Of a DNA stretch of 64,000 bases, positions 32,068 through 34,770 are shown piece after piece. Location of the stretch: assembly GCA_045128715.1 (NCBI GenBank), contig JBGVRU010000017.1, forward strand, positions 18,909-82,908. Reading direction: 5' to 3'. The DNA is from Acutalibacteraceae bacterium (lineage in GTDB: Bacteria > Bacillota > Clostridia > Oscillospirales > Acutalibacteraceae). Below the pieces are notes generated by a model. The model worked only from the letters and a program-made list of their open reading frames with translations, made no database searches and was not told where the DNA came from. Position 1 is the first letter of the stretch, and each line of letters starts with the position of its first letter. A program made the translations under genes and the position numbers.

Positions 32068-32295
32068 TTAAAAAACACAATAGGTTTGACAGGCAAGAGT
32101 CGACTTCATTACGGTTTCAACTCTTACTTGCCAAACCTCTTTTTCAGATATAATAATATTAACTTTATGTATTCCCTTCCCTATTGCTTCAACAAAATTA
32201 TGCGTAAATACATTTTTAATTTGATCTATCTCTTTTTGAAAAGTTTGCAAATATAATTTTACATCTGAAAATCTTATGTTCAGTATTTTCATCAT
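32068..32295 (-). CDS. doubtful 75-aa ORF (possible gene remnant)
   Basis: Track ORF only. Its 3' third is made of the SPFH terminator hairpin, and I recognise no RBS or family. Confidence 0.15.
   Translation of the reverse strand: MMKILNIRFSDVKLYLQTFQKEIDQIKNVFTHNFVEAIGKGIHKVNIIISEKEVWQVRVETVMKSTLACQTYCVF
32082..32145 (+). terminator. long-stem terminator after the SPFH gene
   Basis: AGGTTTGACAGGCAAGAGT / ACTCTTACTTGCCAAACCT followed by CTTTTTC. Confidence 0.65.
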
Positions 32296-32313
32296 TTTAA
32301 TGTTTTAAAACAC

Positions 32314-32342
32314 TTGACGGCAATTGTTTTAAATGATATAAT
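32314..32342 (+). promoter_or_regulatory. promoter of tRNA-Arg(CCU) (TTGACG-17-TATAAT)
   Basis: Hexamers at 32314-32319 and 32337-32342. Confidence 0.65.
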
Positions 32343-32371
32343 CAATTTCACAGTTTTAAAAATTAATATTC

Positions 32372-32446
32372 GCCCCCTTAGTTAAATGGACATAATAAAC
32401 CCCTCCTAAGGGTTAGTTGTGCGTTCGATTCGCGCAGGGGGTGCCA
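32372..32446 (+). tRNA. tRNA-Arg (anticodon CCU), CCA encoded
   Basis: Acceptor GCCCCCT/AGGGGGT, anticodon arm AACCC-CTCCTAA-GGGTT, T-arm GTGCG-TTCGATT-CGCGC, terminal GCCA. Confidence 0.85.
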
Positions 32447-32447
32447 A

Positions 32448-32487
32448 AAGAACACCGCAAGGATTCAGTCCTTGCGGTGTTCTTTTG
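32448..32487 (+). terminator. rho-independent terminator after tRNA-Arg(CCU)
   Basis: 16-bp stem AAGAACACCGCAAGGA / TCCTTGCGGTGTTCTT followed by TT. Confidence 0.8.
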
Positions 32488-32514
32488 TTCCATAATTATT
32501 CATATCAATAATAA

Positions 32515-32730
32515 CATGAGATACATACACATATATGTTTACTCCCACAGTTTTAAGTGATATTGTGCCGATGGCTCAGTGATATTTTTACTTCGTGAAA
32601 GTGATATTATATTCGCCCTAAAACTCACGAAGCGAATATGACTTTTTTGTAATATCACTGTGAAGCAATATAACTCGTATTTGGCGCATATAACTGAAAA
32701 ACCTACAAGTCGAAACTTGTCGGTTTTTTG
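32515..32730 (+). ncRNA. candidate structured non-coding RNA/element (AGTGATATT repeats, pseudoknot-capable core, own terminator)
   Basis: No ORF longer than 14 aa. AGTGATATT at 32556, 32578 and 32600, with an inverted copy at 32651-32659. Helices CTTCGTGA(32591-98)/TCACGAAG(32625-32) and ATATTCGC(32609-16)/GCGAATAT(32632-39) interleave. Terminator at 32701-32729. Strand and ends are uncertain. Confidence 0.35.
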
Positions 32731-32766
32731 AAAAGGGTGTACGAATTCGATGCCCTTTTATTTTTT
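32731..32766. terminator. second hairpin (AAAAGGG/CCCTTTT with a CGAATTCG loop) between convergent units
   Basis: 7-bp stem followed by a T-run on the plus strand. On the minus strand it lies downstream of the TIGR04076-like gene. Confidence 0.5.
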
Positions 32767-32821
32767 CACCTATGTGTTCGAACCCCTACATATTTTAAGA
32801 TAGTGTTTGATGAATAAATTT

Positions 32822-33153
32822 TCAGTCTTTTGGTCTGGGACCATTGGGCAGACGGTTTCCATTTTCATCACGGTTAATGGGAGTTGCTTTGAGATGAAAT
32901 TGTATACATCCATCAGCACAAGGAATATTCATTTCATATTTTTCTTTTTCTCCTCTATATGTAAAGTCACCACCACATCGAATGACTTCACACCATGTGT
33001 ATACTTTTATCATTGTTTTAGGACACATTCCAGCAGGACATTCATAGGAAAAAACAAATTTGTCTCCTTTTTCCAAACCGAGCCTACAATGTCCTGCTTT
33101 TCCCGATATTCGGTTAATTCAAATTGCCAATCTTCAGTACACCATTTTTGCAA
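32822..33153 (-). pseudogene. TIGR04076-family small Cys-rich protein, apparently frameshifted
   Basis: RBS GGAGGA plus TTG 33153 gives (M)QKWCTEDWQFELTEY..., which runs out of family-like sequence. The C-terminal 84 aa (track ORF 32822-33076: GDKFVFSYECPAGMCPKTM...RCGGDF) continue upstream in another frame as INRISGKAGHCRLGLEKGDKF, back to a TGA at 33119-33121. A 1-nt frame change near 33110-33121 is needed to join the two parts. Confidence 0.55.
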
Positions 33154-33190
33154 ATAAATATCCTCCGTCAAATTTTTATTCGTTGGTTAA

Positions 33191-33219
33191 ATTATACCAT
33201 AAGTTATATTTATAATCAA
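33191..33219 (-). promoter_or_regulatory. promoter of the TIGR04076-like gene (TTGATT-17-TATAAT, extended -10 TGg)
   Basis: Reverse complement reads TTGATT ataaatataacttatgg TATAAT. It abuts the hairpin/12-mer array. Confidence 0.6.
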
Positions 33220-33220
33220 C

Positions 33221-33437
33221 GCTTTGCGAAGCAAAGCACATTAATTATCACGGCGAAGCCGTGTATATCATCAATTCCATAAGGAATTGCATATCATCAA
33301 AGCGGAACGCTTTGTATATCATCATTGCAAAAGAATTTTTGATGCACACCTGAAGGTGTGATGAGATACAAGGGCGGTAAAACCGCCCTTGATGATATAC
33401 AGCCTAACGGCTGATGATATACCATTGCTTTCGCAAT
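33221..33437. repeat. array of 8-9 short perfect hairpins of differing sequence, alternating with a conserved 12-mer (3 direct TGTATATCATCA-type, 3 inverted TGATGATATACA-type)
   Basis: 12-mers at 33262-73, 33288-99 and 33313-24 (direct) and at 33359-70, 33390-401 and 33412-23 (inverted). Hairpins at 33221-37, 33251-61, 33274-87, 33300-12, 33345-60, 33371-89, 33402-11 and 33424-37. Confidence 0.8.
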
Positions 33438-33441
33438 GGAT

Positions 33442-33477
33442 AAAAAAATTCGACTTGTCGAAACAAGTCGAATTTTT
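33442..33477 (-). terminator. rho-independent terminator after tRNA-Arg(UCU)
   Basis: AAATTCGACTTGT / ACAAGTCGAATTT stem flanked by A/T runs, immediately 3' of the tRNA. Confidence 0.75.
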
Positions 33478-33554
33478 TGGCACGCTGAAAGGGACTCGAA
33501 CCCCCGACCCTCTGCTTAGAAGGCAGATGCTCTATCCAGCTGAGCTATCAGCGC
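33478..33554 (-). tRNA. tRNA-Arg (anticodon UCU), CCA encoded
   Basis: Reverse complement reads GCGCTGA-TA-GCTCAGCTGGATAGAGC-A-TCTGC-CTTCTAA-GCAGA-GGGTC-GGGGG-TTCGAGT-CCCTT-TCAGCGT-G-CCA. Confidence 0.9.
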
Positions 33555-33589
33555 AAATAGAAATTAATCACATTTACACAACGTTTAGG

Positions 33590-33618
33590 ATTATATCATA
33601 TTATTTGAGAAAAGGCAA
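33590..33618 (-). promoter_or_regulatory. promoter of tRNA-Arg(UCU) (TTGCCT-17-TATAAT)
   Basis: Reverse complement reads TTGCCT tttctcaaataatatga TATAAT. Confidence 0.6.
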
Positions 33619-33645
33619 GTGTTTTTGTGATTAATTTTTATTTTT

Positions 33646-34770
33646 TTAAGATTTCCTGAAATACATAAACAGTTGGCACTTAATCATACCGTTATAAAGC
33701 TTACGGCGTTTATCGGCAGTAGAACCGAAATACTTTTCAAACTCATCATGAGGGCTTATAATATAATACTTCTGACCATCGCTGCGTACAAAACGCTCCC
33801 CCATTGTTTTATAAAGCTGCTCAGCCTCTTTAACGTCGAGCAGTCTTTCGCCGTAAGGTGGATTGGTAACTAAAAGACAACGCTCTTTAGGAGGAGTAAA
33901 ATCGTGTATATCACCTACTGAGGCCTTGACATATTTTTCAACACCTGCTTTTTTAGCGTTTGCGAGGGTGAGTTCTACACAGGCAGGGTCAATATCATAG
34001 CCTTGAGCACTGAAATCAATGTTATGGCGAATTAAATCCTGTGCGCGGGTACGTTCCTCACGCCAAATTTTTTCGTCTAAAAATCTGAAGCGCTCAGCCG
34101 CAAAATAACGACGAAGGCCTGGAGCAATATTAGCCGCCATTAATGCAGATTCAATTAGCAGGGTTCCACTGCCGCAGAAAGGATCGAAAAACAAAGTATC
34201 AGGGAAAATACGTGCCAAATCGCACATTGAAGCCGCCAAGGTTTCTTTTAACGGAGCATCGTTTGAATTACGGCGGTATCCCCTTTTGTGTAATCCGTCA
34301 CCGCTGGTATCTATCATCATAGTAACAATATTTTTATGAATCGAAAACCTTATTTTGTATTCGGGACCTGTTTCTGCAAAGCGAGTGACAGAATATTTTA
34401 ATTTAAGTCTTTCAACAATGGCTTTTTTTATAATTGATTGGCAATCGGGAATGCTGAAAAGCTGTGAATTAATGCTCCAGCCGTTTACCGGGAATGCATC
34501 GTCTTTACCGATATAATCCTCCCATGGCAGAGCCTTAACGCCGTCAAAAAGCTCTGTAAAGGTTACGGCATCAAATTCACCAACATTTATTAAGATACGT
34601 TCAGCAAACCGTGAGCATATATTAGCACGCGCCAACATATTTTGGTCACCTGAAAGTAAAACTCTGCCGTTTTCGGCGACAACCTCACTAAAACCCATTC
34701 TGCGAAATTCATCCGCTGCAATACTTTCAACACCGAATAGGCACGGTGCTACTAAATTTATTTTATTCAT
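33646..34770 (-). CDS. THUMP-domain class I SAM-dependent RNA methyltransferase (RlmL/YpsC-like)
   Basis: N-terminal THUMP-like region, SAM-binding FFDPFCGSGTLLIE, catalytic TNPPYGERL. Confidence 0.8.
   Translation of the reverse strand: MNKINLVAPCLFGVESIAADEFRRMGFSEVVAENGRVLLSGDQNMLARANICSRFAERILINVGEFDAVTFTELFDGVKALPWEDYIGKDDAFPVNGWSINSQLFSIPDCQSIIKKAIVERLKLKYSVTRFAETGPEYKIRFSIHKNIVTMMIDTSGDGLHKRGYRRNSNDAPLKETLAASMCDLARIFPDTLFFDPFCGSGTLLIESALMAANIAPGLRRYFAAERFRFLDEKIWREERTRAQDLIRHNIDFSAQGYDIDPACVELTLANAKKAGVEKYVKASVGDIHDFTPPKERCLLVTNPPYGERLLDVKEAEQLYKTMGERFVRSDGQKYYIISPHDEFEKYFGSTADKRRKLYNGMIKCQLFMYFRKS

Follow-up and report, generated by a model that had tools for sequence, protein, structure and literature searches.

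A probable gene-less, eroded copy of a Gut-1-type hairpin-and-linker array beside tRNA-Arg(CCU) in an Acutalibacteraceae genome

The stretch at 32545-32729 of the window, by which we mean the whole 64,000-nucleotide piece of Acutalibacteraceae DNA that was analysed, is probably a gene-less and eroded copy of a Gut-1-type hairpin-and-linker array, a modular repeat dispersed in uncultured gut Clostridia, belonging to the GTGATAT-linker subfamily. The genome, a 1.62-Mb Acutalibacteraceae MAG, contains 10 copies of this modular repeat, the window copy being one of them and the most eroded of all. A sequence-only reading had seen in 32515-32730 a candidate sRNA or cis-element with a pseudoknot-capable core and its own terminator, related to a second array on the other side of a TIGR04076-like gene. 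Part of this stood: the stretch is structured and non-coding, and its architecture is akin to that of the array at 33221-33437. The part that did not is the stand-alone sRNA of about 200 nt with an H-type pseudoknot.

Results

Features of the 32515-32730 stretch

The individual features that had been described are present at the positions given for them. The linker AGTGATATT occurs in three direct copies (32556, 32578 and 32600, plus strand) and one inverted copy (32651-32659, minus strand), and its count in the window is 5 against 0.86 expected, a value reached in 0/100 shuffles. Two small hairpins, GCC-GAT-GGC within 32565-32577 and ACTT-CGTGA-AAGT at 32590-32602, were found, as well as the two helices of the proposed pseudoknot: CTTCGTGA (32591-98) with TCACGAAG (32625-32), and ATATTCGC (32609-16) with GCGAATAT (32632-39), both complementary at 8/8 positions, interleaved, and with G32632 common to both. 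The arms of the competing hairpin, 32586-32609 and 32650-32673, show 75% complementarity. There is no gene-like ORF in 32515-32730, the longest contained ORF (39 aa) lying on the minus strand. The region folds better than its shuffles, with z = -4.5 on the plus strand and -4.0 on the minus strand, and both strands fold equally well.

Architecture of the window copy

In full units of the family, a terminator-like hairpin is followed by half-array A, a conserved centre and an inverted half-array B, and half-array A is composed of four short hairpins spaced by a 9-nt linker, AGTKATATT. The window copy extends over approximately 32545-32729, with accessory modules up to 32793, and retains 8 linkers. 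Its order on the minus strand is TIGR04076-like gene, module X, module Y, terminator B, half-array A, centre, half-array B and the convergent tRNA-Arg(CCU).

Half-array A (32626..32696, minus strand, as placed by the MAFFT alignment A1) carries the linkers L1 CAGTTATATG (32687-96), L2 AGTTATATT (32667-75), L3 AGTGATATT (32651-59) and L4 AGTCATATT (32635-43), interspersed with a remnant of hairpin 1 (32676-86), hairpin 2 GCTTCAC (32660-66), a remnant of hairpin 3 (32644-50) and hairpin 4 CGCTTCGTG (32626-34). The stems of hairpins 1, 2 and 3 are broken or lost, and 13/20 model pairs form in this half, the fewest among 58 aligned copies (median 20). On the plus strand hairpin 2 reads GTGAAGC, one change from the mini-hairpin GCGAAGC.

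The conserved centre (32609..32625), which reads AGTTTTAGGGCGAATAT on the minus strand, consists of a second copy of the hairpin 1 3' arm (GGCGAA) and then the first inverted linker. Its GCGAAT is invariant in the 12 copies of alignment A1, and the centre and the hairpin 1 5' arm switch jointly between linker subfamilies, TATTCGCC/GGCGAATA in one case versus ATATCCGTTCC/GGAACGGATAT in the other. A promoter inside the centre, suggested by TATAAT in GCGAATATAAT, was dropped since no suitably spaced -35 box is present.

Half-array B (32556..32608, minus strand), the variable half, contains three linkers (32556-64, 32578-86 and 32600-08; AGTGATATT on the plus strand, AATATCACT on the minus strand) and two hairpins, both near-intact, at 32565-77 (one mismatch) and 32587-99 (a T-G wobble on the plus strand, that is C-A on the minus strand). 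The flank of its outer end (32545..32555, minus strand) reads ...ATATCACT followed by TAAAACTGTGG, and the copy on contig C28 of this genome and L156 share this outer end, ATATCACTAAAACTG. Neither a promoter nor a gene was found after half-array B in the window copy, which is followed there by the convergent tRNA-Arg(CCU) only.

At the other end, the terminal type B hairpin (32697..32729, no strand assigned) has the shape of an intrinsic terminator. The terminator that the sequence-only reading had placed here is seen, and with an A-run on one side and a T-run on the other it is bidirectional; the pattern scanner missed it because of one stem mismatch. On the minus strand it lies 3' of the TIGR04076-like gene, before L1. 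Hairpins nearly identical to it close the C28 copy and, at 33443-33478, the right-hand array. Beyond it are module Y (32732..32759, minus strand), a hairpin AAAGGG...CCCTTT that also accompanies terminator B and the array in the C28 and L031 matches, and module X (32770..32793), which reads ATATGTAGGGGTTCGAACACATAG on the minus strand and of which the part GGGGTTCGA resembles a tRNA T-arm. Window positions 32725-32793 match L031 3403-3471 at 85.5%, and a degenerate second X (CTGTGGGAGTAAACATAT on the minus strand) occurs just beyond the opposite end, near 32530-32550.

The overall design recalls the BOX elements of Streptococcus pneumoniae, which are modular (boxA-boxB(n)-boxC) and made of conserved blocks of 45-60 nt. 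Both are modular intergenic repeats with variable internal modules, strong predicted structure and no coding capacity. There is no sequence relation between the two, and unlike BOX, which is not known to have a linked protein gene, the arrays described here combine 9-nt linkers with freely varying hairpins.

Relation to Gut-1

Since 2010 Gut-1 has had the status of an orphan motif in Rfam, known from human gut metagenomes only and from no identified organism, and was graded a likely non-coding RNA by Weinberg et al. (PMC2864571). It resembles the arrays of this genome in its short hairpins, its constant (G)UGAWAU linker and its restriction to uncultured gut-derived bacteria (RF01706; PMC2864571). 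Against a gathering threshold of 50 bits, three paralogues of the window copy score 61.9, 54.3 and 53.2 bits with the Gut-1 model, and five others 37.7-49.2 bits. The window copy itself stays below the threshold: in a scan of 32490-32740 the best match, 27.0 bits on the plus strand at 32555-32617, corresponds to half-array B, and the conserved half A gave no reported Gut-1 hit. Our own model R1, built from repeat copies, gives 85.2 bits (E 1.8e-15) on 32593-32700 of the minus strand, a score that is inflated by the presence of the window row in the training set. In alignment A1 the window copy aligns with its paralogues across the whole conserved half, with invariant linkers and centre, and on this alignment it can be regarded as homologous to Gut-1 member sequences. 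In the Rfam scan, which covered the region and seven paralogous loci, all matches other than the flanking tRNAs and Gut-1 were weak chance ones (snoRNA, miRNA, SpF41).

Half-array A is the Rfam Gut-1 motif, and Gut-1 is half of a larger inverted unit. The Rfam model covers 77 nt and three hairpins, whereas the unit here measures approximately 200-335 nt; unlike Rfam's Gut-1, it is built as an inverted doublet that includes a centre, ends in a terminator, and often has a promoter and a gene as well. The canonical GUGAAAU arrays of relatives have the identical full architecture. The linker of the window copy, UGAUAU, differs from that of canonical Gut-1. Each of the copies on C52 and C28 is a half-unit.

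Stem pairing, loops and the sRNA alternative

Across the family the four hairpins of half-array A are 97.6% paired, and 251 double changes were counted, affecting 16/20 pairs of the family model; 0/500 shuffles match the covariation score. Such strong covariation is what a structured RNA would give. A stand-alone sRNA, that is a transcript of about 200 nt ending at the 32701-32729 terminator and formed of hairpins and an H-type pseudoknot, could also account for a region that outfolds its shuffles and is closed by a terminator shape, and Gut-1 has been classed as sRNA by the Rfam curators and rated likely ncRNA (PMC2864571). We nevertheless consider this reading very unlikely. The pseudoknot is not kept: in seven full-length paralogues, 2-4/8 pairs of the first helix and 4-7/8 of the second can form, the latter mostly in the AT-rich part of the linker. 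Between the strong tRNA-Arg(CCU) terminator and the array there is no promoter-like site on the plus strand, the conserved half of the family is on the minus strand, and the window copy has lost 7/20 stem pairs. The equal folding of both strands and a copy number that ranges from 0 to 38 among relatives also argue against a single sRNA gene.

The stems and loops bear on the same point. Inner stems are about 97% Watson-Crick, and G-U pairs (8) are about as frequent as A-C mismatches (7), so the stems show no strand bias. This balance and the loop polarity described next speak against the catalogued view of Gut-1 as a single sRNA on Rfam's strand. As a means of assigning the strand this comparison failed for want of asymmetry, and loop analysis was used instead. 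Of the 228 loops of half-array A, 166 are GNA or GNRA when read against Rfam's orientation and 0 when read on Rfam's strand. In half-array B the polarity is reversed (27/68 versus 0), with a C-G closing pair in 58/68. Loop polarity is therefore a property of the half-unit and not of the whole element, and since it flips between the halves, no single transcript holds all the favoured loops. A nested linker-to-linker 'ladder' was considered for the fold and set aside: minimum-free-energy folds use some linker pairs, and pairing of L1 with the centre excludes the nesting of the other linkers.

The single-strand initiation sites ssiA and ssiB of RSF1010 lie on opposite strands, as do the favoured hairpins of half-arrays A and B. 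Mini-hairpin DNA of this kind (GCGNAGC or GCGNNAGC; phage G4 origin, ssiA/ssiB of RSF1010) shares with the arrays its C-GNA-G or C-GNRA-G loops on very short stems, and for mini-hairpins of the GCGNAGC type the DNA form is far more stable than the RNA form (PMC13037366). The family consensus of hairpin 2 on its favoured strand is exactly GCGAAGC, the window copy having GTGAAGC. Unlike the ssi mini-hairpins, which are single, the arrays occur in many copies per chromosome and set four to five hairpins on constant linkers. The loop and stem pattern fits single-stranded-DNA-type hairpins better than one sRNA, and the opposite strands of the C-GNA-G/C-GNRA-G loops in A and B indicate that it is most likely as single strands, on either side of the centre and directed away from it, that the hairpins fold.

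Link with PF05635/TIGR02436 proteins

In 'master' copies a small gene for an Avd-like four-helix-bundle protein (PF05635/TIGR02436) is driven by a sigma-70 promoter that adjoins the last linker. The linked product has 116 aa and forms a four-helix bundle for which no catalytic activity is known; beside intact arrays it scores 95.5 bits with PF05635 and 107.6 bits with TIGR02436, and its closest solved chain is 2RLD, from a pentamer. An array lies directly upstream of 4/4 PF05635 genes in this genome and of 12/12 in G018 and G010 (a degenerate array only in two cases). Across 41 genomes, 27 contain both array and protein, 3 the array only, 1 the protein only and 10 neither (Fisher p = 2.6e-6); the co-occurrence among 16 other families gives p = 0.005. 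On the protein tree the linker classes cluster, with 22 changes versus 44.3 in shuffles (0/200 as low), and orthologous protein clades retain their linker type across species, a correlation that physical linkage and co-inheritance alone could produce.

Unlike the window copy, the C53 copy of the GTGATAT subfamily has a promoter and a co-oriented PF05635 gene, and the putative cognate protein of the subfamily in this genome is encoded at C53:1889-2239. A search in G018 (94% complete) for a match in trans failed for this subfamily: at least 6 gene-less GTGATAT copies are present, none of the 7 PF05635 genes found sits behind a GTGATAT array, and no matching gene-linked array was found there.

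Both the Avd proteins of DGRs and the ORFs of 23S rRNA intervening sequences belong to PF05635 (PMC10053308). As in these cases, where intervening sequences lie inside rRNA hairpins (PMC10053308), the protein here is encoded near a structured nucleic-acid element. Unlike a DGR, the genome (97% complete) contains no match to a reverse transcriptase (PF00078), and a template/variable repeat pair was not found. The putative partner of the protein would here be the hairpin-linker array, in which it differs from DGR Avd.

Copy number, synteny and mobility

Gut-1 matches number 0-38 per relative genome, and many are at contig ends. With a crude ORF call, 31 copies are co-directional with the upstream gene and 16 opposite (p = 0.04), a bias that would not be expected of a purely strand-blind DNA element, and 11/58 copies come after a co-directional tRNA at a distance of 30-39 nt (187 nt in one case).

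The comparative alignment of the tRNA-Arg(CCU) flank that had been proposed brought no sign of conservation: nothing similar was found in five congeneric genomes and one contig (L014, weak tRNA match). In L012 this flank carries an array with a different linker. In the Band_7 neighbourhood of 80 relatives, none has tRNA-Arg(CCU) behind the gene, and L031 has Band_7, then Y-X, then an array, without tRNA-Arg(CCU), left array or small gene. A search for a strain-level empty site at the window locus found only one other contig, which is 100% identical, and the 72-aa ORF adjoining the C2 copy, used as an empty-site query, matched no protein on record. In 8 metagenome contigs the terminator that follows an HTH gene is whole; in this genome it is split in the loop, and an array is joined to its left half. 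This is the only split terminator site found, and it goes together with a larger rearrangement, the MAG being fragmented. No insertion was found that is clean and keeps both flanks.

Alignment to a known IS or MITE had been named as an outcome that would speak against the sRNA, and what we found comes close to it, the alignment being with a dispersed repeat that has Rfam Gut-1 paralogues. An element of REP/REPIN or MITE type, moved in trans by RAYT/Y1 or another transposase that recognises the hairpins or inverted ends, deserves consideration here. In the REP, BIME and REPIN sequences of Enterobacteria and Pseudomonas, which are associated with RAYT, the palindrome is conserved, extragenic and arranged in inverted doublets. 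The arrays are similar in being extragenic palindromic repeats in inverted doublets, located behind genes and terminators, with a copy number that varies between species, contigs that break inside arrays, and a gene-linked 'master' next to many gene-less copies. Several points nonetheless make such an element highly improbable. The Y1 transposase (PF01797) was not found above the Pfam cut-off in this genome (best 18.5 bits versus 23), and neither a target-site duplication nor a transposon-type terminal inverted repeat was seen at the ends compared, the inversion being that of the half-arrays. Moreover, it is the linker that stays constant here and the palindromes that vary, the reverse of REP, and the linked gene encodes a four-helix-bundle protein.

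Relation between the left and right arrays

The right-hand array shares with the window copy its inverted half-arrays, variable hairpins, constant linker, TGATAT core and terminator cap; the two belong to different linker subfamilies, GTGATAT versus GATGATATAC. The proposal that they are the ends of one gene-carrying element receives unexpected, though partial, support from the C28 locus, where the same pair of blocks brackets different cargo: window 33504-33247 matches C28 2308-2563 at 82%, and window 32796-32600 (minus strand) matches C28 3658-3863 at 76% over 208 nt, with a PF05635 gene (114-aa product) and an HTH-like gene (by eye, putative) as cargo on C28 and the TIGR04076-like gene in the window. 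What does not agree with the proposal is that the arrays have the same orientation and are each complete alone.

A more elaborate version would make them the borders of a cassette joined to a tRNA gene at its 3' end, ordered on the minus strand as tRNA, terminator, right array, promoter, cargo, X-Y-terminator B and left array, which would accumulate behind tRNAs by site-specific insertion and leave X as a T-arm leftover. The copies just behind co-directional tRNAs are in line with it; in addition, at least 5 copies are preceded by tRNA 3'-end-like fragments not called by ARAGORN, and in L031 a right-type array adjoins X-Y without cargo. We hold this version to be doubtful, given that X and the tRNA share only about 9-10 nt (GGGGTTCGA) and that the acceptor end is absent, that an integrase was neither sought nor seen beside the loci examined, and that most copies in this genome are behind protein-coding genes and not tRNAs. 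It extends the reading of the stretch as an eroded, gene-less array copy and does not exclude it.

Discussion

We tentatively propose, as one possible explanation for the family, that Gut-1-type arrays are not sRNA genes and that Avd-like four-helix-bundle proteins (PF05635/TIGR02436) have them as nucleic-acid partners. The 7-11-nt linker, placed between very stable C-GNA-G ssDNA hairpins on both strands, would be specific to the protein clade that reads it. Protein, array and outward promoter would together constitute a cassette, self-propagating or able to capture genes, with terminator loops and the positions behind tRNA genes as the places where it settles, and eroded gene-less copies such as that in the window would be its fossils.

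The narrower reading given at the outset, that of an eroded array copy, is the more probable one. In it the hairpins are probably under selection for exact Watson-Crick pairing and for C-GNA-G/C-GNRA-G loops, and most likely fold as single strands, more likely of DNA than of RNA, with both strands folding from the centre outward. Between them, the invariant linkers would be sequence-specific recognition sites, most plausibly of the cognate four-helix-bundle protein. Gene-less copies are probably non-autonomous by-products of the spreading of the family into terminator-rich intergenic DNA. The window copy is in decay, and at most still acts as the terminator of the neighbouring gene.

As a decaying relic the window copy probably has little function, and it is the family that matters more. 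Gut-1 is now placed in named lineages, namely Acutalibacteraceae and other Clostridia MAGs, and RF01706 matches should not be taken as sRNA genes on the annotated strand. The PF05635/TIGR02436 family, so far unexplained, gains a candidate partner through adjacency, co-occurrence and matching linker types. Two old unknowns thus merge into one question, whether the protein binds the linker, and whether it does so as DNA or as RNA.

Results

The left array and the Gut-1 family

Between tRNA-Arg(CCU) (32372-32446, + strand) and tRNA-Arg(UCU) (33478-33554, - strand; both ARAGORN) lies the left array, at about 32545-32729. Read directly in 32100-33700, the linker AGTGATATT stands on the + strand at 32556, 32578 and 32600 and on the minus strand at 32651-32659; across the 64-kb window it occurs five times where 0.86 copies are expected, a count that no shuffled sequence attained. 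The small hairpins described between the copies are in place, 32697-32729 forms a hairpin (terminator B) with an A-run on one flank and a T-run on the other, and an ORF check found no credible ORF in the stretch, which folds better than shuffles on both strands (z = -4.5 and -4.0).

The sequence-only reading had taken this region for a candidate small RNA with a pseudoknot. The two 8-bp helices on which the pseudoknot was built are perfectly complementary and interleaved, but paralogues do not keep them: in seven paralogues, 2-4 of 8 pairs form in helix 1 and 4-7 of 8 in helix 2, the latter mostly from AT-rich linker. As judged by this comparison, the helices are local accidents. Furthermore, no promoter-like site was found upstream of the left array on the + strand; the strong sites of the region belong to the tRNA (32314-32342) and the TIGR04076-like gene (33219-33191). 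The sequence observation is confirmed, while the reading as an sRNA with a pseudoknot is unsupported.

An Rfam scan of the left array returned one suggestive match, Gut-1 (RF01706; 27 bits, where the gathering score is 50), whose consensus consists of hairpins with GUGAAAU between them. Searching the source genome (a 1.62-Mb assembly in 90 contigs) for GTGATAT clusters revealed the identical direct-then-inverted pattern at eight places, which were aligned end to end with MAFFT. The paralogous loci match Gut-1 at 61.9, 54.3 and 53.2 bits, with five others at 37.7-49.2 bits, all on the strand opposite to that proposed earlier. A covariance model (R1) built from 12 copies (alignment A1) found 10 copies in the genome and scored 32593-32700, minus strand, at 85 bits; the window row was part of the training set, and the alignment is better evidence than this score.

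In Rfam orientation (window minus strand), the unit starts with a terminator-like hairpin, followed by half-array A (L1 CAGTTATATT, hairpin 1 CGCC-UUGC-GGCG, L2, hairpin 2 GC-UUC-GC, L3, hairpin 3, L4 and hairpin 4, L1-L4 being constant linkers), the centre AGTTTnnnGGCGAATATA, and half-array B, a unit of A's kind, inverted. The window copy has nearly intact linkers and centre, but its hairpin 1 lacks the 3' arm, hairpin 2 carries one mismatch and hairpin 3 is deleted; 13 of the 20 model pairs form, the lowest of 58 aligned copies (median 20). Within a Gut-1-type hairpin-array family, the left array is an eroded member that scores below threshold and has no gene.

Dispersal of the arrays

The array behaves as a dispersed repeat and not as a gene conserved at the window locus. 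Forty relatives carry 0-38 Gut-1 matches per genome; some genomes of the genus have none, and some other families have 29-34. Contigs end within 100-200 nt of many of these matches. The DNA downstream of tRNA-Arg(CCU) is unrelated in five congeneric genomes and in one contig (L014, where the tRNA match is weak), and none of 80 relatives has tRNA-Arg(CCU) behind the Band_7 gene. At one locus in a relative (L031), the Band_7 gene is followed by the accessory modules Y-X (85.5% identical to window 32725-32793), directly by a right-type array, and by a tRNA; tRNA-Arg(CCU), the left array and the small gene are absent there.

At contig C44 of the source genome, the sequence departs in a terminator loop after ...GCCGTA into the terminal hairpin of the element; the terminator is intact behind the same 77-aa HTH gene (AAAAACACTCTGCCGTAACAGCAGAGTGTTTTT) in eight metagenome contigs, and its remaining half was found on contig C25. 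This split terminator is a single case, and the part of the MAG around it is rearranged. Half-units occur on C52 and C28, and a full copy follows tRNA-Arg(ACG) on a fecal 'bacteriophage sp.' scaffold (record marked UNVERIFIED). A co-directional tRNA lies 30-39 nt (in one case 187 nt) upstream of 11 of the 58 copies. Orientation relative to the upstream gene is biased, not fixed: by a crude ORF call, 31 arrays run in the direction of that gene and 16 against it (p = 0.04).

Several related elements were also seen. The half-unit at G000:C52:13275-13650 (L015) ends just past the centre, and by eye the next DNA resembles a recombinase-type ORF in its C-terminal part. Another subfamily, with a terminator of its own, lies at G000:C27:63271-63480 (L017); its linkers read ACGATAT in 4 direct and 4 inverted copies. 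No PF05635 gene of the genome was seen to carry precisely this linker, and C33 comes closest with ACGATGT. Beyond half-array B, an extra repeated block of ~120 nt (G000:C7:4121-4270, C25:30176-30300, C44:650-790) comprises two long hairpins, AACAAGCAGG...CTTGTT and AAACGGATGTG...CATCCGTTT; the C7 block is inverted with respect to that in C25, which suggests that another family of repeats is nested with the arrays. In one congener, an ACATCAT/GCATCAT linker subfamily (L012, G011:C29) lies downstream of the orthologous tRNA-Arg(CCU), so that sites of one kind hold different arrays from species to species.

Stems, loops and strand

Alignment A2 (58 copies) shows 97.6% pairing over the four half-array A hairpins, and 251 double changes spread over 16 of 20 pairs; fitting A2 to the model biases it towards pairing. 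No slid control and none of the 500 shuffles reaches the covariation score. In a structure acting only as RNA, G-U pairs are expected to be tolerated far above A-C mismatches. In the inner stems, where ~97% of pairs are Watson-Crick, the G-U count (8) is close to that of A-C mismatches (7).

On the strand opposite to Rfam's, 166 of 228 half-array A loops are GNA (133) or GNRA (33), against none on the Rfam strand. Polarity is reversed in half-array B (27 of 68 versus 0), with a C-G closing pair in 58 of 68. Loop polarity in A and B thus defines the repeat unit as stem, C-GNA/GNRA-G, stem, plus AATATCACT, and the halves are true inverted copies whose favoured strands run outward from the centre.

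On the favoured strand, hairpin 2 has the consensus GCGAAGC. This is the archetypal 'mini-hairpin DNA', a motif that occurs at single-strand initiation sites and whose stability is extraordinary as DNA but far lower as RNA (PMC13037366). The identity favours, but does not establish, folding of the Gut-1-type hairpins as single-stranded DNA.

Association with PF05635 genes

All four PF05635 genes of the source genome have an upstream array and a promoter; the linkers are GTGATAT (C53), ACATCGTT (C33), ATTATTCAT (C72, degenerate array) and GATGATATAC (C28). At C53 the -35 box abuts the last linker (ATATCAC|TTGAAA-17-TATAAT). Two relatives (G018 and G010) have an upstream array at 12 of 12 PF05635 genes, one degenerate. 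Among 41 genomes, 27 contain both array and protein, 3 only the array, 1 only the protein and 10 neither (p = 2.6e-6); for the 16 that belong to other families, the tallies in this order are 5, 2, 0 and 9 (p = 0.005). At least 12 loci show the order Gut-1 (+), inverted half, then PF05635 (+) within ~25-230 nt.

Linker class is clustered on a tree of 71 C53-protein homologues (22 changes versus 44.3 when shuffled, 0 of 200 as low). Whole protein clades share one linker (GTTATGA, TTGAAAT, GTGAAAT, GCTAAAT or GTGATGT), and orthologous clades keep it across species while the hairpins change. Since a gene and its adjacent array are co-inherited, this clustering alone is no proof of recognition. G018 has gene-less GTGATAT copies, yet none of the seven PF05635 genes found there is GTGATAT-linked.

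The array-linked proteins are TIGR02436 'four helix bundle proteins' (closest solved chain 2RLD), and the PF05635 family resembles DGR Avd and 23S-IVS ORFs (PMC10053308). A DGR was ruled out, as reverse transcriptase is absent from the genome.

The C53 locus (L003, G000:C53:1889-2903) has the sole GTGATAT array accompanied by a PF05635 gene. From the opposite end, a 175-aa open frame (2376-2903, minus), which by eye resembles a HAD-type hydrolase, extends ~90-115 nt into the terminal hairpin and into half-array A; the 3' end of this gene may have been replaced by the element. In several relatives (L163, L138, L151, L141, L130, L135, L147, L162, L059) a near-identical promoter and leader, CTTGC-N12-GCTTTTATGCTATAAT ... 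AAGGCGGTGATGAT-ATG, begins within 5-10 nt of the last linker, and the downstream ORF starts differ.

Paired arrays around exchangeable genes

The two arrays flanking the small gene had also been proposed to be the ends of one element carrying it. The window minus strand matches C28 in two collinear blocks: 33504-33247 (C28 2308-2563, 82%; tRNA 3' end, terminator, right-type array) and 32796-32600 (C28 3658-3863, 76%; modules X, 32770-32793, and Y, 32732-32759, terminator B, half-array A). Between them, the window has a promoter and a frameshifted TIGR04076-like gene, and C28 a promoter, a PF05635 gene and an HTH-like gene (by eye). Thus, the two arrays recur as a pair around exchangeable genes.

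The Cys-rich TIGR04076-like gene (32822-33171, -) is split over two frames (ORFs 33010-33171 and 32822-33076); its strong promoter-like site (TTGATT-17-TATAAT) directly follows the right-hand array, and it occupies the position of the PF05635 gene at C28. The right-hand array (33221-33478, GATGATATAC linkers) and its paralogue (G000:C28:2308-2953) share the terminator and first hairpin (CCATTGCGAAAGCAATGG), the latter being followed by a promoter and the PF05635 gene (114 aa).

Fragments resembling tRNA 3' ends, not whole tRNAs, precede several other copies, which hints that cassettes may stack behind tRNA genes. At L151, L139, L169, L119 and L135, apparent tRNA 3' ends (T-arm to CCA) directly precede terminator and array; ARAGORN calls no tRNA at these ends, which may be displaced.

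Discussion

The left array probably has no function of its own, apart from supplying the terminator of the neighbouring gene. For the family, we infer from genomic association, its sole support, a mechanism in which single-strand hairpins would display the linkers and an Avd-like protein would read them.
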